Virus record (IMG/VR): IMGVR_UViG_3300005758_000043
Strand: one strand, 5' to 3'
DNA length: 44,150 nucleotides
Source: a virus
Lineage: Duplodnaviria > Heunggongvirae > Uroviricota > Caudoviricetes
This document shows, piece by piece, positions 26,568 through 38,865 of the stretch (positions are counted from its first letter, which is position 1; each line of letters starts with the position of its first letter). The translations under genes and the position numbers were made by a program. The notes under the pieces are model-generated. The model made no database searches. It was not told the DNA's origin and saw only the letters and a program-made list of their open reading frames with translations.

Positions 26568-27736
26568 AACGCTGGAGCAAATGCGCCCATAATCGAAAAT
26601 GGCTCGTAATATGCTCCACTCGTTGAGAGTTCTCGTTTCATAAAAAATCCTCCAGTCTCATTTGCGGCAAATGAATAAGTAGCATTGAATTGCATTATCC
26701 CATTTGTCTGCATCGAGTAGCTGGAGGATTCTAGTTTTGCATTTTCAATCTTATAAAAACCAGATTGTGATTTAGTTTGATCGGCAAATGATACTTCTAA
26801 AGAATATCCGCTTTCATTTCCAAGCAAAGATTGTATATTGCCAACTGCTAATCCAGAAACTAAACAAGAAATCTGCACTTGTCCATTGTTTGGAAAAAGA
26901 AGTTTTCTATCAAATATATAATTACTTCCTAGTCCATAAAGAGGAACTCTGGCCAAATCCAAATCTAAAGAAAAAGATTGTAGCAATGGATTTGCGCTTG
27001 GATCTAAATTAACTCCTCCTATTTGCAAATTCTGAAGAGAAAAAGTGCTTGCACTAGATAATGCTACAGGTGCATTATATTCGTTTCTTGATTCTGGATT
27101 ATTTTTTATATATGTTCCTGTTATAGTTTGATATAACTGTGAAAGATCTAAATTGCCCGATCCGCTATTATTTCCAGAAATGCTATTGATCGCTGGTATT
27201 GGCATTTTGTTGCCAGTTAAAGATTCACATCTTACATTTGAAGCTGAAAAACCAACAGATACCGCTGGAATCTGCCCTATTGCAAATGCAACAGAATATT
27301 TTGTAAGATAACAATTTCCAAAATTCATTGCATTGTATCCACTGAAATTTGAAGGTAAGTTTTTAGCAGCAGTGAAACCATCTTGACCAGCTTCTGTATT
27401 AATCAATAAATATATGTTATTATTTTTACCTTGCAGATTTGATAATGCTGGTTCATAACTATCTCCAGAACCTTTTAATCCGAAAAGCAACTCATTGCTT
27501 AAATAAGGAGTTAAATAGTAACTCATTGATAACTCAACTTCTGGAGCTTTTACAATATCATTTACAGCATAGTCTTGACTGCCAATTTGCTTGATTTTTT
27601 GTCTATCGCTTGTGATAGAGCAATCGGTGCTTTGCACAAGAGAAAGTAATCGCGCCGAATCTTGTCCAGTAGTCCAAGATGGAGAATCGCCAATCAATGC
27701 GAATGTTGAGTTGCTTTTTATGACTATTTTTTTCAT
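26564..27736 (-). CDS. tail-tube-fold paralogue (distal tail/tube initiator candidate)
   Basis: It shares motifs with 42962..44068 (LVQS..R..I.Q.G; NCYLTKYSVAFAIGQIPAVSV; LQSFSL.L.R.PLY.LG) and lies downstream of the tape measure gene. Confidence 0.6.
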   Translation of the reverse strand: MKKIVIKSNSTFALIGDSPSWTTGQDSARLLSLVQSTDCSITSDRQKIKQIGSQDYAVNDIVKAPEVELSMSYYLTPYLSNELLFGLKGSGDSYEPALSNLQGKNNNIYLLINTEAGQDGFTAAKNLPSNFSGYNAMNFGNCYLTKYSVAFAIGQIPAVSVGFSASNVRCESLTGNKMPIPAINSISGNNSGSGNLDLSQLYQTITGTYIKNNPESRNEYNAPVALSSASTFSLQNLQIGGVNLDPSANPLLQSFSLDLDLARVPLYGLGSNYIFDRKLLFPNNGQVQISCLVSGLAVGNIQSLLGNESGYSLEVSFADQTKSQSGFYKIENAKLESSSYSMQTNGIMQFNATYSFAANETGGFFMKRELSTSGAYYEPFSIMGAFAPAF

Positions 27737-28677
27737 GTTCCTGTTGGTATTACTCCTAGTGGATCTTCAATCAATGATACTTCAATATCATGAGAATCAA
27801 AATATTTAAAAGTATGACTCCACGAAGGGGCATAAAATACCTTTTCCCTATTATACACAGATTGAGGAGTATGCGAGAATTTTCTAAAACCCGCTTTGTT
27901 TTCTAAAAAGTGGAGAATCGCTTTAGCTTGTCTTGTTGACACATTACTGAATTTATAAGAGAAATTAGTTTGCGCCAAATTTCTGCGAGTTTTCATTCGC
28001 TGAATAAACGAGTTTTTGAATTCTATTTTATCTACTTTTAAAGTAACATCGTTTTGTAATCCGACATCAGGTTCAAAGAAAAATGCTTGAGTCCATTTTG
28101 ACGATGATCCTGTCGGTCCATCAACTGATGCGCTTGAAGATGTATGATCTCCACTGCAATAATAATAGTTGTTTAATTTATTTGCGCTAATGCCGCTATA
28201 AACAATATCATATTTCTTATATGAAGTTGCCGCAGACCATGTTTGTAGCGGACTATTAATAAATGTCATTCCAGACCAGTTGAGTAAAGCTGGAGCTTGA
28301 TTAACTTCGAAAGATACTGCTACTTCGTAATGGTTTTTATTTATGTGATTGACTGCATAGTTATCACATACTCCACTGATAGTTTTATAAAAGTTAGATG
28401 CGTCGGTGAAGCCAAATAATTTATTACCTTCTTGACGTTCAATATAAGAAACTAATTGTTGCGCGGAGATTTCATTAACGTCAAATCTTAATTCAAACTT
28501 AGCATCAATACTATTGATTGATGATGGGATCATGTTGAAGTATCCATTTTGAGTTTCATATGTATTTGATCTTGCGCTGAAAGAAGCTCTTGATCCATAT
28601 ACAGGCTCTAAACTCAAACCCGTTAATGGAGTTACTCCAGTTATATTTCCAGTTGTTCTATCGTAAAATGCGCTCAT
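27733..28677 (-). CDS. minor tail protein with two lambda gpM-like repeats and an inserted small carbohydrate-binding-like module
   Basis: Repeat 1: EPVYGSRASF..QQLVSYIERQEGNKLF. Repeat 2: EPDVGLQNDV..KAILHFLENKAGFRKFSHTP. Insert: WSAATSYKKYDIVY..YYCSGDHTSS. Confidence 0.6.
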   Translation of the reverse strand: MSAFYDRTTGNITGVTPLTGLSLEPVYGSRASFSARSNTYETQNGYFNMIPSSINSIDAKFELRFDVNEISAQQLVSYIERQEGNKLFGFTDASNFYKTISGVCDNYAVNHINKNHYEVAVSFEVNQAPALLNWSGMTFINSPLQTWSAATSYKKYDIVYSGISANKLNNYYYCSGDHTSSSASVDGPTGSSSKWTQAFFFEPDVGLQNDVTLKVDKIEFKNSFIQRMKTRRNLAQTNFSYKFSNVSTRQAKAILHFLENKAGFRKFSHTPQSVYNREKVFYAPSWSHTFKYFDSHDIEVSLIEDPLGVIPTGT

Positions 28678-29466: not shown

Positions 29467-32400
29467 TTACATTCCTCTTCTTAATTGCCCGCCGAGTCTC
29501 TTTTCTTCTTGGATGACCTTGAGAACTGCGTCTCTGATCTGTCTAGCGAGTTGTTGCTTCCCTTCTGAGCCATTACCGTCAGAAGTCTCAGAAGACTTGC
29601 CAGAGCCGCCTTCTACGTTAATTGTGATGTTTCCAGCAGAACCAGATGCTTCAATCAATTCATCAAGTTTGGAAATCAAACGATCATTCAATTCTTCGCT
29701 CTTTTCTTCTGTTGGAAGAGACTTTGCTCCGCTGTTCAACGCTTGAAGATTTCCGCTACCGATATTTTGTGCAGCAGCACGATTCATGATGAACTCTCCA
29801 CCAGAAAGCATTGTTGATACCGTGTCGATGCCTGATGTTGAAGGAATTGGTCCACCTGTAGCTCTATACTTTTCAAATGCCATTCCATTAACATCACCAA
29901 CAATTTTTGCGCGAGGAGTGAATGCTGTATCGCTAAATATATTAGATAGACCTCCAGATCCGTTATATCCACTCCATACTCCATTTATTCCAGAACCAAT
30001 GGATGACATATATCCTTGCCCTAAATTTTGAGCTTGAGTATATCCATTATTAAAACCAGTTACCGCAGACTTAACCAAAGAACCACCAACAACAGAAATA
30101 CCAAGCATCAATAATTGATTTCTCAAAGCTTTTGATTGCTCCTTTTGTTTCTTTTGCTCTTCTTTTTTGGCTTCATAATCTCTCAAATACAAAGAGAAAG
30201 CTTCTCCCTTTGCAGAGCGCAATGCTTCCGCCGCTGGGCTATTCTGTCTTCCAAAATTTGTCAATCTTGCGCTTTCAGCTTCCAAATTAATAGAAGCATA
30301 ATTTCCGCTATTGATAATTTCATCTCTTTTGCCTGTAGTATAAGATTGTGTAGCAAAACCTAACAAGTTTTTAGAACCAGAGATCGCTCCTAATCCATAT
30401 TGACCTGGTGTATAGAAATTGCCTTGTGGGCCTTTTTGAACTGGTCCACCTTTTGCATATCCGCTTATAGATCCACTATTAAGAGCATTCAAGAAATCTG
30501 GTCCATACTTTTGAACAGCTTTTTTGTTCATAACAAATTCACCGCCCATAAGCATAGCTGGAACATCGTCCTTATTTCCAGAGCCTCCAACGATTGCTCC
30601 TCCAGAAGCCCTGAACAATGAAGAGAAACTTGGAATCAAATTACCCAAACCACCTACAGCTTTATCAACTAAATTGCCAATGATTTTTTGATTGATTCCT
30701 TTAACAAATTCGTATGCGGCAGCTTTTAAAGCATCTCCTAGCGATGCAGTTCCCTCGATTGCTGAATTGATGGCATTTGCCATTCCACTCGCAAACATAG
30801 CAGGAATTTCTTGCCCAAGTTTAGATTCAAATTCTTGGACGCTCTTATTCAATTCGCGAAATGCATTTGTCATCCCCTCTTTGAAAGATCCTGGTTGTGC
30901 CTGTGCTGTTTGAATATCGAACTTTGTTTTTAAAGTTTTACCACTTTCAAATTGGGTTGCTTTTATATTTCTGAGTCCTTCTGCGGCTTTAGTCAATTCT
31001 GTAGCTTTTTCTATTGCAGCATCTCCAGTATATCCAATAGCTTCGGCAGCTTTTTGAGCAGCTTCGCTGAGATCTCCCGACATCATAGACAATTTCTGAA
31101 CTTCGGCCCATGCTTTATCAGGGCTTTTTTCCCAATTTTTTGTATAGAATGTTTCTCCATTAATGGTTTTTGATAATCCCATTTCAGGTTGCAAATTCTT
31201 TTCCAATTGCGATCCTGCTTGCACATTGTGAGTGTATGGAGAATTGATATTTGGATTATTAAAAAGATCTTTAAATTGTTTTTCTGTAAGTGGATTTGTT
31301 TGTGCAAACCTTCCTGGATTTTTAAGTGGTTCATAATATTTTGCATTTTTTGCTACACTATCAACACTTTGTCCATACATAGATGCTCTATTGAAAACAG
31401 TCGATAAAAATGCCGCTTGCGCATCTTGAGATTGACCGCCAACTTCAGAGGCAATTAATTTGCGCAAATGCGCTGTATCCACTCCAGTCAAGTCTCTATT
31501 TTGCATTGGAGTGTTTGCTGGTGATTCAGCAACTTCTTTTGCTAAAGCATCATATAACTTTTGTAAAGCTTCTGTATTTGCAGCCAATTGTTTCGTATTC
31601 TCCAAAGTCATTTGCTCTGTTTTAAATTGAATTTCTGCTTCTTTTGCCGCTTTTTCAAATTCAAGTTGTTGAGTTTTATCAAAGAATTCTTTTTCAATCT
31701 GCTGTTGCTTGTTAAGGTATTCTTGAGGATCGGTTATTCCCGCAAAGTTTTTTGGATTTTGTAATTCAAAATCTTTTTGCATGCTAAGTCTTTCAATACG
31801 GCCCGAAAGAGCAATGTTTTCTCTTTGTTTTTCGGCCATTGATCCAGTGAATGATAACAATAATTTATTGAATTGCTTTTCTAAATCTTTTGATGCATTA
31901 AGGAATGCTGGATTTAACTGTTCTAACTTGCTTATCATTTCTTCCGTAGCAAGAGAAGCTTCGTTCATTGCCGAACCAATTTGCGCTGTGGATTGAGAAA
32001 AATTAGACTGCTCTAATTGCGCTCTAGATTTTCTATAGTCTTCTTCAATATCTGGAGCATTTTTTATGCTCATCATTTGTTTTAAAGAATCTTCGGCTCC
32101 AGGGACACCTTGTTCCGCTAAAGTTTTAAGATTACTTATTTGATTTTCTATAAAATCTGTTTGTGAAGATCCGCTTTTTAAATAATCTGCTGATGCAATT
32201 ATTTTTTTGTAAAAATAGTCTGCGGAATCGACAACTAATTTCTGCGAACTAAAAGCTGCATCTAATTTTATAATTGCAGCATTTTTTTCAGCTTCAGCAA
32301 TATCTTTTCCTAAATTTGCGAGTTCATTAATAGAACTTGCTTTCTCAATTTTAGACACAAGCCCTTGTCCAAGATTTTTTTCAAGAGCATTAGATAATAA

Positions 32401-35400
32401 ATCTTTTTGAAGATTTCTAAAAATTGTTTGCTGTTGATTTTGAGCTTTTAATACAACAGAAGATCTTTCTTTTTTATTAATTAAGACATCAATATTATCT
32501 TGCATTCCTTTCGGAGCAATAGATTTTAATTGTTCTGCTCTATTTTTAAAGCTATCATCTCTTATATTTAATAACTTTTCTTCATATGAAAGCTCCTCTT
32601 TGAGCAAATCAATATTTTGTAATCTAAAATTTCTTTCGTTATTCAAAGCAGAATTCTTAGCTTCAACAATAGCAGTTGTTTTTTTGGTTAAATCTTCTTG
32701 TATTTTCGTTAATTTGATTTGATCAGCAATTGAATTTAATTGGCTGTCTAATAAATTTAAAATCTTTTTATAAGCTTCTCCTTCTCCAAATATAGATTTT
32801 AATTGATCTTCTAAAGAATTTTTAATTTGAGAATTATAGCCTTGTTGTTGAATGATTTGTTCGGTTATTGAATCCACTAATCCACGAATTTTTTCAAAGC
32901 TCTTCTCGTTTATTTTTCCAGCAATAGCTTCTCCAACAGCGTTTTTGATAGCTTCTTGACTTCTTAAAAAATCTGCTGCTGCACCCGCTTGTTGCTTAAC
33001 TAGTTCAATAGAACTTTTTCTAGCAGATAATTCACGATCAATTGATATTTTTCTCGCATCTGTTGTATTAATTAATTCTTTTTCTATAGATAGTAATAAA
33101 TCTTGTTGGCTATTAATATCTAATAAAGCTAATTTATATTTGATAGCATTATCTAATTTTTGCTCTGCTAATTGTAAATTAATAAGATTAACTGATTCTT
33201 GTATTTTAGCTTCTTTTGTAGTATCTTGAAAAATATCTAAAAGTTTTTTTGCTAATTCTTGTTTTTTTCCAGCATCATTAAGATTTCCAGATTCAGCGAT
33301 TGATTTTCGAGCTTCATCTATTTTCTTTTTTAATTCTGGATTTCCTGCTATATTTGTATTTACAGAAGCAAATAAATCATTAATGAATGGATCTAATTCG
33401 ATTCCTTTTAATCCTGCCGAAACAGCTTTTTCATATTTTTGTCTAGATTCTTCACTTGATAACTTATCAACCAAATCTGTTTCAAAAGCAGTTAGAGCTT
33501 TAAATTGCAAATCGCTAAATCCTTTGTAAACATCTTCAGAAGATAATTTAGCGGTGCCAGATTCTAGATTAGTAGTTCCAACTGTATATTTCTTTTGAAG
33601 CGCTGTCGGGCCTCCCACATTATATTGTTCTTGTAATTGAGCTTCAGATATTGAAGCTTGTCGTGCTAAAAATTCTTTATTATTTTTAAATGTAGCGAAT
33701 TCGAATTGTTGAGCATTTGCTTTTGCAGCATATTCAGCTTGGGATGCATCGCTAGAAATTTTATATTTATCTCTTAATTGCTTTTTTTCGCCTTCTGTCA
33801 TATAGGTAGCCATGAAACTACCTAATGCACTTTCTCCAGTATTAAACTGTCCTTTTCCGAATCCTTCGATCTTGCTACTAGTTATTTTAGATAATGATTT
33901 TGCAGCCGCTTCAGCTTCTGTATCAATAATGTTAAGCGCTCTAGCAAAACCTGTTCCTAGATCCATGAGCCATCCAGCCAAATCTTTTCCAAATATTTTT
34001 CCAATTGCATTTACAGCTTGAAATGCTGTTATAACTTGCCCTATAACTGGAAGCATTTTTCCAAACAATGGTCCTATTTTAGTAATAGCTCCTAAAGTCC
34101 CTCCTGCGACTTTACCTACTACCCCTGTTTTAGAAGCTGCATTTGCAAGTTTGCTTGTTATCATTCCTCCACCAGAAGAAGAAATTGCTGATGCTGCATC
34201 AGCTAAATCTGCCGCTGATGCCCCAGATTTTCTTGCTGTATTGAAATTTTCTAAAGAGTTTTGAAGTTCAGACTTAGGCTCTTTTCTCATTTGCCTGCCC
34301 ATTTTGGTGAATTCATTGAAACTCAAAACTCCAAAACTTACATCATTTAATCCTTGAGCTAATTTTTGCCCAGATTCTCCAAGCTCAGAAAACACTCCAG
34401 TTAATGCTGAAGCTACAGACTGAAATAAGAAAACCTTACCAACAAAATCTGCTGCGCTTTTATTATCTGAGTCTGTTGTTTGAGATAATCCTTGATTATT
34501 TAATTTTTTAGCTGCTAAAGCTTCTCTTTTTGCTTTAGCTTCTTGAGCCGCAATTTCTCTTGCTTGCTTTATAGATTCCGCTTGTTTTTTAGATTCATCA
34601 GCAACCTTTTTTGAAACATCAGTGCTATTACCCAAAGCTACTAATGCAGCCTCTAGTTTTTTAGATAGCTTATCCATATTGCCACCAGCCGCAATAGCTT
34701 TTTTTCCAAATTCATTAATAGCTTTTTCAACATCAGATCCAAACTTTGTGCCACCTCCTAATGAACTTGCCACTTGACCAGCGATTTCTGGAATTTTTGC
34801 AGCATAATTCGGCACAAATCCACTAGCCGCACCATAAGTCTTTGGATTACGCCCTTCTTTGATTGCACGGCTAACACCTTGATGCCCACCCATTGGTTCA
34901 TCACGACGATTAGCGACCATCAAACCCATTGGGTTTGCCGCGTTCTTGAGCGAAGGACTCTTATCAATATAGATCTGCGAAGAAGGAACTCCAGCCGCCA
35001 TTTCGCGGCTAATTGCCTGCTTGAGAGGATCAGCAAAATTAGGTAAGAATCCTCTCGCTGCATATTTCGAAGTTAAGCCCCCAATACCAGAAAATAGTGT
35101 TCGTTGGAATTCTTTTTTTGGCATTTCAGTTACAAACTTCTTTAACTCTTCAATGGTTTCGAAATCATTACCACCAAAAGAACCTGATGTTACAAGATTT
35201 GGAATCTGTCTATATTTAAGTTGAGGGAAACTATAAATCAACTCGTCCCAATTACTCATTTTATTAAAATCAATAGGCTTTTTTGATCTTGAGATTTTTC
35301 TCTCTTTTTGAGAAACGAGTTGATCACTAAGAATAGGTAATTTTGTTCTTTTTGATAATTTTGCTAATTGTAAAAATAATTTATAAGCGTCTCCTTTCTT

Positions 35401-38400
35401 TTTTGAAGTTATATAGTCAATTTTTAAGGATTTTTCATCCATAAAATCATCTACTTCAAAATCTAAAGTGCTGCCTTTTTCAGTCTTGTATCGTCTGTAT
35501 AGCGATCCATAATTATCTTCTACCCAAAAGCTTTTTTGTGCAAAGTTTGGAATAAAACCATTTGCGGCTGTTTTTTGTTGAGTTTGTTTTATGAGAATTT
35601 TGCCTATTATATCTCTCGCAATACCAGAAACTTTAGCGGCCCCAGGATCAAGAATTCCAATTTTTGCGCCAGCAGCAGCCATACTCCTCAAAGTAGCAAA
35701 TGCGCCAACAGCATTTTGAGGATAATTTCTCAATTGATCTATTTGATTTTCAGCATTTTTGTTTACTGTATAGTTTGAGCCGTGTAGATCTTCTATGCTC
35801 AAACCTCTAGCTCCAAGTGCGCTAAATAAAACTCTTCTTCCAAAAGATTCAGAAACCTGCGATCCTAATGCGGTTTTTGCCAAAGGATCAGATATGACTT
35901 CTTTTCTAATAGATAGTTTTCTTTTTGAATCTTCAAGGCTAGATAAATTTTTAGGTCCAAATATGCTTGGAATATTTGCATATTTATTTATAAATTCAGA
36001 AACGAGCCATTCGAACTCTACTGCTTTACTAGGTCCATCCTTAAAAAATTTCTTGACGCCAACTTGAGTTCCATCTTTTTCTCCAAGTCTATAAAATGCG
36101 CCCTGCACTCCTCTTCCTATTTCTCTCGATTTAGAAACATAATTGGGAATATAGCCTGATGCTTTATTTTCTAGTTTGGGCGTTTTTATTTCGCCCATCT
36201 GAATTGCATTCTTGATTTTAGTATCAAATGAATTTATATTGTCATTATTTAAAGCGTTTTTGAAATCTAAAGCTTTAACTCTATTTAAAACATTGCTTAA
36301 ATGACTATTTGGTTGTAAACCATTGGCGCTCCCAAAAGATGCCGCAAATCCTTTAATTGATCCTTCTCCAAGAATATCAAAATTCGCATTTGATTTTTTA
36401 CTTTGAATTCCAGAGGCAGCTTGCAAGGCTGTTTCAAAAACATTTCCAACAGCACTCTGTAAAGTTCCTTCGTTGAGCGTTTTATTAGCAATATCTAAGA
36501 ATTTTTGGTCATCAACTACATCTGGATTTATTCCTATATTTTTTACATAATTTCTAGATGTGTTTATGAAAGATTGTCGTAATTCTTTATATAGAAAATC
36601 ATCAGGATGAGAAACAACAGATGCAATCTTAATAATATTACCGCCTTTAGTTGTTGCAAAACCTGTTTTTTGTTTAGAAGATGGATATAATAACGCAATA
36701 TTAGATGAATAATCTCCTTGCATTAATTTAATAGACTCTTCTTCTTTTATTCTTCTTTGGAGAGATTTTTCTCCGCTAGATCTCCAGTTTAGATAAGCCT
36801 CGCGAACAGTTTCGTCTCCTAAACTTGAGTATGGATTTTTTTTATCATTTATATTTAAATTTGGGTTATCATTAATAAAAGCATTCCATTCGCCCTTAAC
36901 TGTTTTACCAGATAGTCCAACACGATCTACAAATAAATCCCTTGATGCTGCTGCAAAATTAGGAATCAATCCCCCTGCCGCTCCAATTTTTTTAGCTCCA
37001 GCAGGAAGACCCATTTTTTTAACCATATCTCGGTTGAAAATAGCTGTGCCACCACTTCCTGCGAAATTAGGAATTGCATATTCTCCTGTATGAGCAACAA
37101 TAGATCCTTTTTTGCCGCCGCCAAAATTGAAGTTCGGAATAACCACAGGCTTGTCGCCTGATCTTGCTCCACCAACACCTCTGCTAATGTCAGAGCTTTC
37201 TTTAGCTAACGCTGGCATATATCCAGCCGCCGCATTCTTTTCTGGCACTCTAAGACCTTGCCCTGTCGCTCTTATCCCTAATCCATATGAAGGGCTAGCT
37301 AAATCTTTAGAAATAGCAGCACTTCTTCTGATTACGGCTTCTTGTTGAATTAAAGCATCAGTAATAACTTTTAATTGACCTGCTCTGTTTCCTTCTAATG
37401 AAAATAGTTTTTGCTGCAAACCGATATTAGTAGCTAATGCTGTATTGATTGCTTTTTCAACATCTGCAATATCTTTTGCAGCTTTTCCAATTCCGAAGAA
37501 ACCTTTTAAACTTGAGAAGCCGAATTGAACCAGATCCTTAGATAGTTTAACAATAATAGCTCCAAATAAAGCTAAACCTGGTCCACTAATCAAGTTTCCA
37601 ATTCCTTTAACTAATCCGCGAACAAATCCACCCATCGCACTTTCTTCGCCCAAGATATTTTGGATACTATCCAATAAACCTCCAAAGAAATTAAGCAAAT
37701 CTCTTAAATTATCAGTAATTCCAATTTTGCCTAATGTAGCTCCCAATTGTTCGGCGCTAATAGAAACTTTATTAATGATTGCTGAAAGTGTTTCATTTAA
37801 TGCGGCATTCTTTTTATAAGCTTCTGAAGTCGCTCCTTGAGATAGTTTAACAATATCAGCATATTTTGATTGTTCGCTTCCCAAATCTTTAACAGCGGCA
37901 AGTAAGTTAGACAATTGATAAACACCACCAAGTTTTTTGGAAATATCTGCTTGTTTAGTTTGGCTTAATCCTTGAAATTCCTTAGCTAAATTTTGGAGAA
38001 TTTCTGTTGCTGGTAAAATTTTTCCAGCAGTATCTACCACTTGGATTCCTAAGTTATCAAGATCTTCTAAAGCTCCTTTATCTTGGATCTTGGAGAAAAT
38101 TGTTTTAAAAGCGTTACCAATAACAGCACCACCACGCGCAGTTCTTTCTTGAACTGTTGTAATAATACCTACAAGCTCATCAAATGAAACTCCAGCTTGA
38201 TCAGCAACAGAAGCGGAACGTTTGATACCTTCGATAAGATCTCGTTCAGAAACAGCGTATTGCTGAGAAACAACAACCAATTTATTCAAAATCTGGGAGC
38301 TTGTAATCCCAGCATCTGCAAATGAATTGATAGCAGCAGTCAAACCTTCAACAGATTGTTGCGCATCCAGCCCAGAAAGTCTTGATAAGATAAGAGCATC

Positions 38401-38865
38401 ATTGAGTCTTTTTAAAACTTTTTGTGCATCTAAACCTTGTCTGGAAAGTTCCAAAGCTCCTTCTGCAACTGTTTCAAATGATTGGCCTGTAGATTTAGCC
38501 AAGTTGAAAAGATTATTGCCAAATTTATCAAGCTCGCTAGAACTTTGTTTCAAGTTGATATTAATATCGGTTAAAGCTTTTTCTGTGGCAATTGTATTTT
38601 TTACCAATGCTTGAAAAGCTTTAGATACGCCATTAATAACACCAACTGAAGCTCCGAAAGCGAATACACGCGCATTCGCGGCTTCCATAGATTTCGTGAA
38701 CTCGTCTGCTTGCCCAGTAATTCTTCCTAATGGTTGTGCCAACGCATTGATTTGTCGGCTATTGGTTCCCAAATTGATCTGAGCATTACGTCCAGCAGTT
38801 TTTAACGCTTGTTGAATACTTTGCTCTAATCCTACTTGAGTTACTGGTAACTGAATTGATTGCAT
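29467..38865 (-). CDS. giant tape measure protein (3132 aa) with embedded enzyme-like domains
   Basis: N-terminal TP901-type core (LFNLAKSTGQSFETVAEGALELSRQG..GNAFKTIFS), long coiled-coil/Ala-Gly helical tracts, two C-terminal A-x-GG..D-x-V-x-x-ML-x-GGEF repeats, and its position in the tail module. SD-like AAGGA upstream. Confidence 0.9.
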   Translation of the reverse strand: MQSIQLPVTQVGLEQSIQQALKTAGRNAQINLGTNSRQINALAQPLGRITGQADEFTKSMEAANARVFAFGASVGVINGVSKAFQALVKNTIATEKALTDININLKQSSSELDKFGNNLFNLAKSTGQSFETVAEGALELSRQGLDAQKVLKRLNDALILSRLSGLDAQQSVEGLTAAINSFADAGITSSQILNKLVVVSQQYAVSERDLIEGIKRSASVADQAGVSFDELVGIITTVQERTARGGAVIGNAFKTIFSKIQDKGALEDLDNLGIQVVDTAGKILPATEILQNLAKEFQGLSQTKQADISKKLGGVYQLSNLLAAVKDLGSEQSKYADIVKLSQGATSEAYKKNAALNETLSAIINKVSISAEQLGATLGKIGITDNLRDLLNFFGGLLDSIQNILGEESAMGGFVRGLVKGIGNLISGPGLALFGAIIVKLSKDLVQFGFSSLKGFFGIGKAAKDIADVEKAINTALATNIGLQQKLFSLEGNRAGQLKVITDALIQQEAVIRRSAAISKDLASPSYGLGIRATGQGLRVPEKNAAAGYMPALAKESSDISRGVGGARSGDKPVVIPNFNFGGGKKGSIVAHTGEYAIPNFAGSGGTAIFNRDMVKKMGLPAGAKKIGAAGGLIPNFAAASRDLFVDRVGLSGKTVKGEWNAFINDNPNLNINDKKNPYSSLGDETVREAYLNWRSSGEKSLQRRIKEEESIKLMQGDYSSNIALLYPSSKQKTGFATTKGGNIIKIASVVSHPDDFLYKELRQSFINTSRNYVKNIGINPDVVDDQKFLDIANKTLNEGTLQSAVGNVFETALQAASGIQSKKSNANFDILGEGSIKGFAASFGSANGLQPNSHLSNVLNRVKALDFKNALNNDNINSFDTKIKNAIQMGEIKTPKLENKASGYIPNYVSKSREIGRGVQGAFYRLGEKDGTQVGVKKFFKDGPSKAVEFEWLVSEFINKYANIPSIFGPKNLSSLEDSKRKLSIRKEVISDPLAKTALGSQVSESFGRRVLFSALGARGLSIEDLHGSNYTVNKNAENQIDQLRNYPQNAVGAFATLRSMAAAGAKIGILDPGAAKVSGIARDIIGKILIKQTQQKTAANGFIPNFAQKSFWVEDNYGSLYRRYKTEKGSTLDFEVDDFMDEKSLKIDYITSKKKGDAYKLFLQLAKLSKRTKLPILSDQLVSQKERKISRSKKPIDFNKMSNWDELIYSFPQLKYRQIPNLVTSGSFGGNDFETIEELKKFVTEMPKKEFQRTLFSGIGGLTSKYAARGFLPNFADPLKQAISREMAAGVPSSQIYIDKSPSLKNAANPMGLMVANRRDEPMGGHQGVSRAIKEGRNPKTYGAASGFVPNYAAKIPEIAGQVASSLGGGTKFGSDVEKAINEFGKKAIAAGGNMDKLSKKLEAALVALGNSTDVSKKVADESKKQAESIKQAREIAAQEAKAKREALAAKKLNNQGLSQTTDSDNKSAADFVGKVFLFQSVASALTGVFSELGESGQKLAQGLNDVSFGVLSFNEFTKMGRQMRKEPKSELQNSLENFNTARKSGASAADLADAASAISSSGGGMITSKLANAASKTGVVGKVAGGTLGAITKIGPLFGKMLPVIGQVITAFQAVNAIGKIFGKDLAGWLMDLGTGFARALNIIDTEAEAAAKSLSKITSSKIEGFGKGQFNTGESALGSFMATYMTEGEKKQLRDKYKISSDASQAEYAAKANAQQFEFATFKNNKEFLARQASISEAQLQEQYNVGGPTALQKKYTVGTTNLESGTAKLSSEDVYKGFSDLQFKALTAFETDLVDKLSSEESRQKYEKAVSAGLKGIELDPFINDLFASVNTNIAGNPELKKKIDEARKSIAESGNLNDAGKKQELAKKLLDIFQDTTKEAKIQESVNLINLQLAEQKLDNAIKYKLALLDINSQQDLLLSIEKELINTTDARKISIDRELSARKSSIELVKQQAGAAADFLRSQEAIKNAVGEAIAGKINEKSFEKIRGLVDSITEQIIQQQGYNSQIKNSLEDQLKSIFGEGEAYKKILNLLDSQLNSIADQIKLTKIQEDLTKKTTAIVEAKNSALNNERNFRLQNIDLLKEELSYEEKLLNIRDDSFKNRAEQLKSIAPKGMQDNIDVLINKKERSSVVLKAQNQQQTIFRNLQKDLLSNALEKNLGQGLVSKIEKASSINELANLGKDIAEAEKNAAIIKLDAAFSSQKLVVDSADYFYKKIIASADYLKSGSSQTDFIENQISNLKTLAEQGVPGAEDSLKQMMSIKNAPDIEEDYRKSRAQLEQSNFSQSTAQIGSAMNEASLATEEMISKLEQLNPAFLNASKDLEKQFNKLLLSFTGSMAEKQRENIALSGRIERLSMQKDFELQNPKNFAGITDPQEYLNKQQQIEKEFFDKTQQLEFEKAAKEAEIQFKTEQMTLENTKQLAANTEALQKLYDALAKEVAESPANTPMQNRDLTGVDTAHLRKLIASEVGGQSQDAQAAFLSTVFNRASMYGQSVDSVAKNAKYYEPLKNPGRFAQTNPLTEKQFKDLFNNPNINSPYTHNVQAGSQLEKNLQPEMGLSKTINGETFYTKNWEKSPDKAWAEVQKLSMMSGDLSEAAQKAAEAIGYTGDAAIEKATELTKAAEGLRNIKATQFESGKTLKTKFDIQTAQAQPGSFKEGMTNAFRELNKSVQEFESKLGQEIPAMFASGMANAINSAIEGTASLGDALKAAAYEFVKGINQKIIGNLVDKAVGGLGNLIPSFSSLFRASGGAIVGGSGNKDDVPAMLMGGEFVMNKKAVQKYGPDFLNALNSGSISGYAKGGPVQKGPQGNFYTPGQYGLGAISGSKNLLGFATQSYTTGKRDEIINSGNYASINLEAESARLTNFGRQNSPAAEALRSAKGEAFSLYLRDYEAKKEEQKKQKEQSKALRNQLLMLGISVVGGSLVKSAVTGFNNGYTQAQNLGQGYMSSIGSGINGVWSGYNGSGGLSNIFSDTAFTPRAKIVGDVNGMAFEKYRATGGPIPSTSGIDTVSTMLSGGEFIMNRAAAQNIGSGNLQALNSGAKSLPTEEKSEELNDRLISKLDELIEASGSAGNITINVEGGSGKSSETSDGNGSEGKQQLARQIRDAVLKVIQEEKRLGGQLRRGM
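34798..37234 (-). repeat. six copies of the A-x-G-[FYL]-[ILVM]-P-N-[FY]-A-like peptide linker inside the tape measure gene
   Basis: AAAGYMPALA (~37201-37234), AAGGLIPNFAA (~36948-36982), ASGYIPNYVS (~36133-36162), AANGFIPNFAQ (~35537-35569), AARGFLPNFAD (~35029-35062) and AASGFVPNYAA (~34798-34830). Confidence 0.85.

Follow-up and report, generated by a model that had tools for sequence, protein, structure and literature searches.

Two ingredients of the system described here are already known: phage proteins with a predicted route of injection that contain truncated kinases (PMC5512222), and a tape measure protein (TMP) to which an enzyme is fused (PMC10770324). The former are represented by Kinase-PolyVal (PF18762), a group of truncated kinase domains of the Ser/Thr/Tyr type in polyvalent proteins of phages and plasmids; these domains lack the C-terminal lobe (C-lobe), have an insert in the catalytic region and occur in giant polyvalent proteins that phages infecting Bacteroidetes and Verrucomicrobia are predicted to inject (Iyer, Burroughs, Anand, de Souza, Aravind 2017, PMC5512222). 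The latter is represented by Thermus phage P23-45, in which the N-terminal part of gp96, a TMP of 5002 amino acids (aa), is a virion RNA polymerase that transcribes the pre-early genes (Chaban et al. 2024, PMC10770324). Here we describe a predicted minimal protein-kinase-like (PKL) domain that is embedded, between two short linkers, in the giant TMP of an uncultured tailed phage (Duplodnaviria; Heunggongvirae; Uroviricota; Caudoviricetes). The TMP gene lies on a stretch of 44,150 nucleotides (the window), which is part of a 93-kb IMG/VR virus record (IMGVR_UViG_3300005758_000043) that is estimated to be 72% complete.

A first-pass annotation of the window had proposed that this TMP contains a kinase domain with five motifs arranged as in protein kinases. 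The features that bear on this proposal are the following.

29467..38865, minus strand: TMP gene (P0001, 3132 aa), recognized by a frame that is open across 3132 codons, by PF10145 and by PHROG families
35560..36138, minus strand: predicted minimal protein-kinase-like domain, TMP aa 910-1102, placed by AlphaFold2, Foldseek, VIA and the ratio of nonsynonymous to synonymous substitution rates (dN/dS)
36091..36120, minus strand: Gly-rich loop IGRGVQGAFY, aa 916-925 (G917, G919, G922), placed by conservation and forming the beta1-beta2 turn of the model
36046..36063, minus strand: beta-3 strand VGVKKF, aa 935-940, with Lys938, placed by conservation and by a strand at model residues 31-38
36007..36021, minus strand: helix C VEFEW, aa 949-953, with Glu952, placed by conservation and by a helix at model residues 46-59
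35773..35793, minus strand: catalytic loop EDLHGSN, aa 1025-1031 (Asp1026, His1028, Asn1031), followed by Asn1035, placed by conservation and profile alignment
35668..35760, minus strand: two-helix insert between the catalytic loop and D-x-G, aa ~1036-1066, with helices at model residues 134-142 and 150-162
35641..35655, minus strand: DFG-equivalent ILDPG, aa 1071-1075 (Asp1073, Gly1075), placed by conservation

All five motifs were confirmed in canonical order where the annotation had put them. An alignment of 34 homologous modules, with pairwise identities down to 26% and a mean column identity of 24%, has invariant or nearly invariant columns that coincide almost exactly with the catalytic set of protein kinases. 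The Gly-rich loop follows the pattern G-x-G-x-x-G (G917 and G919 in 34/34 modules; G922 in 28/34, with Ala in the rest), and K938 and G936 of the beta-3 strand are each kept in 34/34. The annotation's helix C glutamate does lie in VEFEW, though it is the second Glu of that motif that is conserved (E952, in 33/34 modules, with one Asp) and not the first (E950, 13/34). Within the catalytic loop, D1026 is kept in 33/34 modules, H1028 in 31/34, N1031 in 34/34 and N1035 in 32/34, and the D-x-G motif retains D1073 in 34/34 and G1075 in 33/34. The core Lys, Glu, Asp, Asn and Asp are therefore each present in 33 or 34 of the 34 modules, and the same catalytic residues are found in tandem copies inside single TMPs and in 13 modules translated from IMG/VR. 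An insert of about 35 aa between the last two motifs had been reported, which is of the right order of size; the actual distance from Asn1031 to Asp1073 is 42 residues in the window's module and ranges from 26 to 69 across the family. Pro971, Lys988 and Asn1035 are likewise conserved and are peculiar to this module family. Lys988 stands, invariant, in the final N-terminal lobe (N-lobe) strand and is followed by Glu (19/34) or Gln (8/34), while the position two before Asp1026 is variable and holds no His. In an alignment whose mean column identity is 24%, it is the motif residues that stay invariant, and the pattern thus goes well beyond chance. A comparison with the closest relative (80% identity) gave a dN of 0.123, a dS of 0.822 and a dN/dS of 0.15, showing that the kinase module is under purifying selection.

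Structure prediction from this alignment yielded a confident kinase fold. AlphaFold2 (AF2) run on the 34 sequences gave a mean predicted local distance difference test score (pLDDT) of 88.2 and a predicted template modelling score (pTM) of 0.82, with all five models at or above 85.8 and with values below 50 only at the two linker ends; the upstream linker (residues 1-9) is disordered. The elements follow one another as beta1-3, helix C, beta4-5, helices D/E, catalytic loop, two-helix insert, a short strand, Asp1073-x-Gly and a final helix. The predicted strands at residues 12-16 and 20-28 flank the Gly-rich loop, K938 falls in the strand at 31-38 and E952 in the helix at 46-59. A single-sequence AF2 model was poor (pLDDT 39, all helices).

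Comparisons of the alignment-based model with known structures point uniformly to kinases. Foldseek against the PDB returned 26 matches at E <= 0.001, and the best 50 listed are all kinases, led by Bud32/PRPK (the best, E 2.9e-5), TTBK1, the ABC1 protein Rv3197, RIO2 and CDKs. VIA-align, which is independent of Foldseek and was run over 48,161 chains, likewise gave a best 50 that are all PKL proteins, with Z scores of 10.6 for Rv3197 (ABC1), 10.2 for Rio2, 10.0 for Bud32, 9.8 for Rio1, 9.4 for APH(2''), 9.3 for Ark1, 9.0 for OspG and 7.8 for NleH1. Kinase families were also returned by BFVD and by the ESM Atlas, searched both by shape and by language-model features; an OspG_kinase cluster scores 0.94 by the latter. 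At the level of sequence, the family profile weakly matches CDPK, MET, p38, CDK2 and Bud32 among PDB sequences (E 0.04-2), with the Gly-rich loop and the D-L-x-x-x-N loop in register, and the catalytic loop aligns with DLKPEN of calcium-dependent protein kinases. Among the 34 members, the most frequent sub-threshold Pfam match is Pkinase (6/34, best E 0.002), and ABC1 appears in two. A search with the single sequence (aa 895-1110) found no match in Pfam, PHROGs or PDB sequences.

With motif conservation, fold model and structural matches in agreement, the proposal of a PKL domain embedded in the TMP is strongly supported, and on the evidence of the models we regard the kinase fold of TMP aa ~910-1102 as established with very little doubt. 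Two outcomes that the annotation had named as refuting the proposal, the lack of a kinase-fold prediction and K/E/D/N/D residues that vary among homologues, were looked for and did not occur. By its predicted fold, Gly-rich loop, beta-3 Lys and helix C Glu, catalytic loop and D-x-G motif, the domain belongs to the PKL superfamily. As modelled, it is a minimal kinase of ~190 aa with a full N-lobe and a C-lobe that is mostly missing: the catalytic loop, the variable insert and the D-x-G motif with its metal-binding Asp1073 are kept, a single helix follows D-x-G and the module ends ~30 aa later. Several hallmarks of PF00069 are absent from the module, namely the His and Arg of H-R-D, an activation segment with APE at its end, and the helices from F to I. 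As the structural scores of ABC1, RIO, Bud32, APH and OspG are tied within one Z unit, none of these can be named as its closest family.

The relatives of the module share its setting. An exhaustive HMMER search of 1.84 billion representative proteins recovered 28 relatives, all of them giant proteins of ~1400-5300 aa or fragments of such proteins, in which the module is again flanked by the same linkers and measures ~200 aa from linker to linker. Several relatives contain two or three kinase copies in tandem, and every full-length carrier has the N-terminal domain of the window's TMP. A search of IMG/VR with an 8-sequence subset of the alignment added 14 further loci on contigs of up to 170 kb. 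Two of these loci, L011 and L014, lie ~4.3 kb apart on one 124-kb record (IMGVR_UViG_3300042878_003046), apparently within one TMP; the two diverged cassettes are 34% and 31% identical to the query, and one reads D-L-I-G-E-N instead of D-L-H. A stand-alone kinase module was found neither in the exhaustive HMMER search nor in a word-index search of proteins of 106-490 aa, and the GTDB species genomes of prokaryotes contain no relative of the cassette. The module founds a separate PKL family, and all of its members seen so far are in giant TMPs of the TP901 type that form one lineage and belong to uncultured, siphovirus-like phages.

The domain is one member of an array of modules divided by short linkers.

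34801..37224, minus strand: cassette array, TMP aa 548-1355, with modules split by six linkers
36139..36156, minus strand: upstream linker GYIPNY, aa 904-909, located by motif scan and disordered in the model
35542..35559, minus strand: downstream linker GFIPNF, aa 1103-1108, located by motif scan

The six linkers, of the form A-x-G-[FY]-[IVLM]-P-N-[FY], stand at aa 548, 632, 904, 1103, 1272 and 1349. The two that bound the kinase module (aa 904 and 1103) read A-x-G-[FY]-[IV]-P-N-[FY], and the domain fits exactly between them, as the annotation had it. The strict linker pattern was observed 4 times as compared to 0.0 expected from 2000 shuffles of the protein, and 146 copies combined in a logo give A-x-G-F-[IV]-P-N-F-A. 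Codons differ among the window's six linkers, and selection thus acts on the peptide and not on a DNA repeat. The conserved peptide suggests that the linker has a role as a protein, as a processing site or docking element; cleavage, chaperone binding and docking to the tube are possibilities.

Comparison of related TMPs indicates how the array varies. Each of the 120 TMPs closest to that of the window (of 2396) has 2-10 linkers, and 24 of the 120 contain the kinase module. The four closest TMPs, with N-terminal domains that are 88-90% identical, lack it. Two of the compared TMPs (P0035 and P0036) match the window's protein at 89-90% identity over aa 1-637, a homology that stops at the linker at aa 632-637 and returns at ~aa 1270, by the linker at aa 1272. 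In a further TMP (P0037), homology extends to aa 909, the linker before the kinase, and is back in the cassette after it, so that relative to P0037 the kinase is a clean linker-to-linker insertion. The carriers contain more than 30 cassette families in varied order. The kinase module is an accessory, optional cargo that is swapped between linkers.

Other cassettes of the array form families of their own. The cassette before the kinase (aa 632-903; 36157-36972, minus strand) belongs to a 6-member family with no match in Pfam or in a profile search of PDB sequences; its conserved columns follow the order E...D...D-x-K known from PD-(D/E)xK nucleases, with F179 in an A-F-E-A-A consensus and with F198-D199 and D236-F237-K238 both invariant. 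The cassette after the kinase (aa 1103-1271; 35053-35559, minus strand) has a family of at least 10 members with invariant G56, L81, Q84 and P112-Q113, has no Pfam or PDB sequence match and adjoins the kinase cassette in six TMPs. In five TMPs, a ~160-aa cassette with weak P-loop (Walker A) matches (AAA_29, E 0.008) stands directly before the kinase (P0002:914-1075, P0003:1144-1304, P0006:881-1041, P0007:891-1051 and P0010:858-1018); to judge from these matches, it may be a second ATP-using enzyme. A ~77-aa module (aa 1272-1355; 34801-35052, minus strand), which is 78% identical to its counterpart in P0035, ends the array in most TMPs of the lineage and may be a fixed downstream anchor of the variable region. 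The remaining regions of the TMP gave nothing significant in Pfam.

The carrier and its surroundings show the following features.

37924..38502, minus strand: PhageMin_Tail (PF10145) domain, TMP aa 122-314, Pfam E 6.5e-31
37531..37605, minus strand: first hydrophobic segment, TMP aa 421-445, upstream of the cassette array, from a Kyte-Doolittle scan with a 19-residue window (peak 1.69)
34378..34446, minus strand: second hydrophobic segment, TMP aa 1474-1496, downstream of the cassette array, from the Kyte-Doolittle scan
27733..28677, minus strand: lambda gpM-like minor tail protein gene, located downstream of that for the TMP, PF05939 E 4.3e-16, phrog_14

PF10145 scores 108 bits on the TMP against a cut-off of 33, and 11 PHROG tape-measure families match its N-terminal third at E <= 1e-12 (best 1e-48). 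The N-terminal 520 aa have 2396 relatives at E <= 1e-30, all among TP901-type TMPs. The array sits between the two hydrophobic segments. The gpM-like gene is two positions downstream of the TMP gene and points to a siphovirus-type tail tip. By its PF10145 domain, its great length and its position upstream of distal tail genes, the carrier of the kinase module is a TP901-type TMP. As to a host, a search with the phage ribonucleotide reductase gave nothing, the phage DnaE has distant matches only (25-32% identity), and a weak hint is that one of the close relatives of the TMP belongs to a metagenome bin with the label Bacteroidota. Other members of the same TMP lineage (P0038, P0045, P0052, P0068, P0136 and others) carry SLT, VanY, NlpC/P60, phage lysozyme or GH19 domains in precomputed Pfam annotations. 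The scaffold thus carries both enzymes for the cell wall and cassettes whose presumed place of action is the cytoplasm.

Among described families, Kinase-PolyVal offers the closest likeness in concept. Both it and the module have lost the C-terminal subdomain while keeping the residues for ATP binding and phosphotransfer, both have an insert somewhere in the catalytic region, and both are embedded beside unrelated enzyme domains in giant phage polypeptides encoded among virion genes, with cassette-like variability. However, neither the window's genome nor two related virus records nor any of the 34 modules matches the PF18762 hidden Markov model, even at E <= 10. Two residues that mark Kinase-PolyVal, a Glu N-terminal to strand 2 and a Gln in its final N-lobe strand, are not conserved here, where an invariant Lys988 is found instead; the Gly-rich loop and the stretch ahead of it have no conserved Glu. 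The cassettes that were scanned showed no MPTase peptidase domain. The carriers differ as well, being a TMP in this case, whereas tape measure proteins receive no mention in PMC5512222. The PF18762 insert is described as lying between the catalytic His and Asp, and the 26-69-aa insert of the module may occupy the same place or another. We treat the family, on the hidden Markov model and the described residues, as separate from Kinase-PolyVal and as one that would work in a like manner, with a distant sister relation being possible.

P23-45 gp96 provides a parallel to the carrier, in that a giant siphophage TMP contains, in its N-terminal part, an enzyme that uses nucleotides. There the enzyme, which acts in the cytoplasm at the very start of infection, is an RNA polymerase in a fixed and essential fusion, as compared to the optional, linker-flanked kinase cassette, and its activity and early function have been demonstrated experimentally, whereas the module is known from its sequence and model. 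Enzyme modules for entry are also embedded in the TMPs that have peptidoglycan hydrolase motifs (TM4 gp17, T5 pb2 and others; PMC12617516). Those enzymes act on the periplasmic cell wall without ATP, while a kinase needs the cytoplasm. The T7 kinase gp0.7, in turn, is an early gene product made after DNA entry and no component of the virion, and we detected no sequence relation between it and the module. This Ser/Thr kinase serves host takeover and phosphorylates host transcription and translation factors, according to the passage of PMC5512222 that cites it.

The best structural matches, Bud32/PRPK, RIO1/RIO2, OspG and NleH, share with the module a size of ~170-230 aa and a reduced C-lobe around a complete catalytic core. 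They differ from it in having no 26-69-aa two-helix insert before D-x-G and in reading D-L-S/T-x-x-N where the module has D-L-H-x-x-N, and the module has no His two before the Asp. The likeness is structural only, as the RIO, Bud32 and OspG sequence families (PF01163, PF22303 and others) gave no Pfam match. OspG and NleH are type III secreted effector kinases and must cross a narrow conduit unfolded.

How might a kinase in a TMP function? In phage lambda, gpH* leaves the particle before the DNA does and makes up a trans-envelope channel, and the TMPs of lambda and T5 are cleaved during maturation, which converts lambda gpH to gpH* (PMC12617516). By analogy, the cassette would ride in the tail lumen as part of the TMP, extended and not natively folded, and would leave ahead of the DNA as the TMP builds its channel through the envelope. 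Once on the cytoplasmic side it would fold, still attached to the channel or freed by cleavage at the linkers, and, with ATP from the host, would phosphorylate some target there, most probably a host protein, before phage genes are expressed. The P23-45 virion RNA polymerase indicates that fusion to a TMP allows a nucleotide-using enzyme to act in a cell that has just been infected. A packaged kinase that acts on the host ahead of phage transcription, as the first-pass annotation envisaged, is plausible from this precedent and from the behaviour of the cassettes. Taken as a whole, the reading in which a real minimal PKL cassette is ejected with the TMP and phosphorylates a host target early seems to us to fall just on the probable side.

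Several points weigh against delivery of an active kinase. The Pfam profile check proposed along with the domain went the other way: for the window's domain, no Pfam kinase family, Pkinase (PF00069) included, gives a match even at E <= 10. With neither an activation segment nor helices F to I in the C-lobe, the fold does not tell how a substrate would be bound. Bud32 and RIO, the nearest structural neighbours, work largely as ATPases. The lumen of the tail is 3-4 nm wide and should not accommodate folded domains of ~21 kDa in three to six copies, so that either unfolded storage or removal before assembly must be assumed. ATP is absent from the periplasm. A tblastn search of 50,697 phage records gave no match that would supply a cultured relative of the phage.

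Some of these points lend themselves to other explanations. A Bud32/RIO-type ATPase or nucleotide switch could drive a step of the ejected TMP, such as channel opening, cassette release or DNA entry, which would agree with RIO, Bud32 and ABC1 as the top structural matches and with a modelled C-lobe that lacks substrate-binding subdomains. The domain is nonetheless missing from 80% of the closest TMPs and is therefore not core ejection machinery, and the catalytic Asp1026, which goes beyond the residues for ATP binding, is kept in 33/34 modules; we regard such a switch as unlikely. Much the same standing, improbable though worth stating, is given to a kinase that is active in the producing cell, where the TMP, expressed late and abundantly, would phosphorylate host or phage proteins, or itself, ahead of tail assembly or in its course, after which the array may be trimmed at the linkers. 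ATP would be at hand there and no translocation would be needed, folded cassettes too large for the lumen would pose no difficulty, and both the cleavage of the lambda and T5 TMPs in maturation (PMC12617516) and the conservation of the linkers as peptides, expected of a processing site, fit trimming. Yet cassettes that occur in multiple copies and are gained, lost and swapped among near-identical N-terminal domains fit variable effectors better than a fixed assembly step, a late enzyme has no need to be fused to a virion protein, and the P23-45 RNA polymerase is a case of a TMP-fused enzyme that is able to act in a new host cell.

The nature of the substrate and the reality of the activity raise two further alternatives. 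The catalytic loop reads D-L-H-x-x-N, the form found in APH and Kdo kinases, while Ser/Thr kinases have D-L-K-x-x-N. Together with the matches to APH(2'') and macrolide phosphotransferases (Z 8-9.4) and the relatives in which a weakly P-loop-matching cassette lies beside the kinase cassette, this would be in keeping with a small-molecule kinase of the APH, Kdo/WaaP or choline-kinase type that acts on a host lipid, a sugar, a nucleotide signal or an antibiotic-like compound. Such an enzyme appears quite unlikely to us, however, given that the helical substrate-binding subdomain of the APH type is absent from the model, that the sub-threshold Pfam matches are to Pkinase and ABC1 and not to APH, and that the N-x-x-x-N following the catalytic loop resembles N-I-L-L-D/N of protein kinases. 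A chance resemblance of motifs, or a dead pseudokinase with a structural role only, would explain why the single sequence has no Pfam or PDB sequence match and why its single-sequence AF2 model reaches a pLDDT of just 39. Such an origin is very hard to reconcile with catalytic residues that are invariant or nearly so over 34 modules diverged to 26% identity, with a confident alignment-based model whose structural matches are all kinases, and with a dN/dS of 0.15, and we consider it highly improbable.

Delivery with the TMP also admits a more far-reaching form, which we put forward tentatively and think doubtful. The TMP would be an effector polyprotein with the linkers as its processing or docking sites, and a changing set of enzymes would pass unfolded along the tail and be freed in the cytoplasm of the host seconds after adsorption, with the kinase disabling a host target in defence or takeover ahead of any reading of phage genes. 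Going by sequence patterns, that set might comprise this kinase, the nuclease-patterned module and the possible P-loop module. If true, it would be a phage counterpart of the type III secreted minimal kinases OspG and NleH.

Our literature search turned up no description of a tape measure protein that contains a kinase, nor of the linker motif. What is new here is a well-supported PKL family in a new carrier, with an unusually clear modular exchange; it entails no new principle. The family represents a compact kinase core of ~190 aa with all catalytic residues conserved, and the TMP lineage constitutes a natural system of cassettes that are swappable between defined linkers. Provided that the kinase is active and is delivered, the tail lumen would be a path by which tailed phages send in protein effectors, and the TMP itself would carry them. 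Such a route would supplement the known injected proteins that are packaged in the head and would allow host proteins to be modified ahead of phage transcription.

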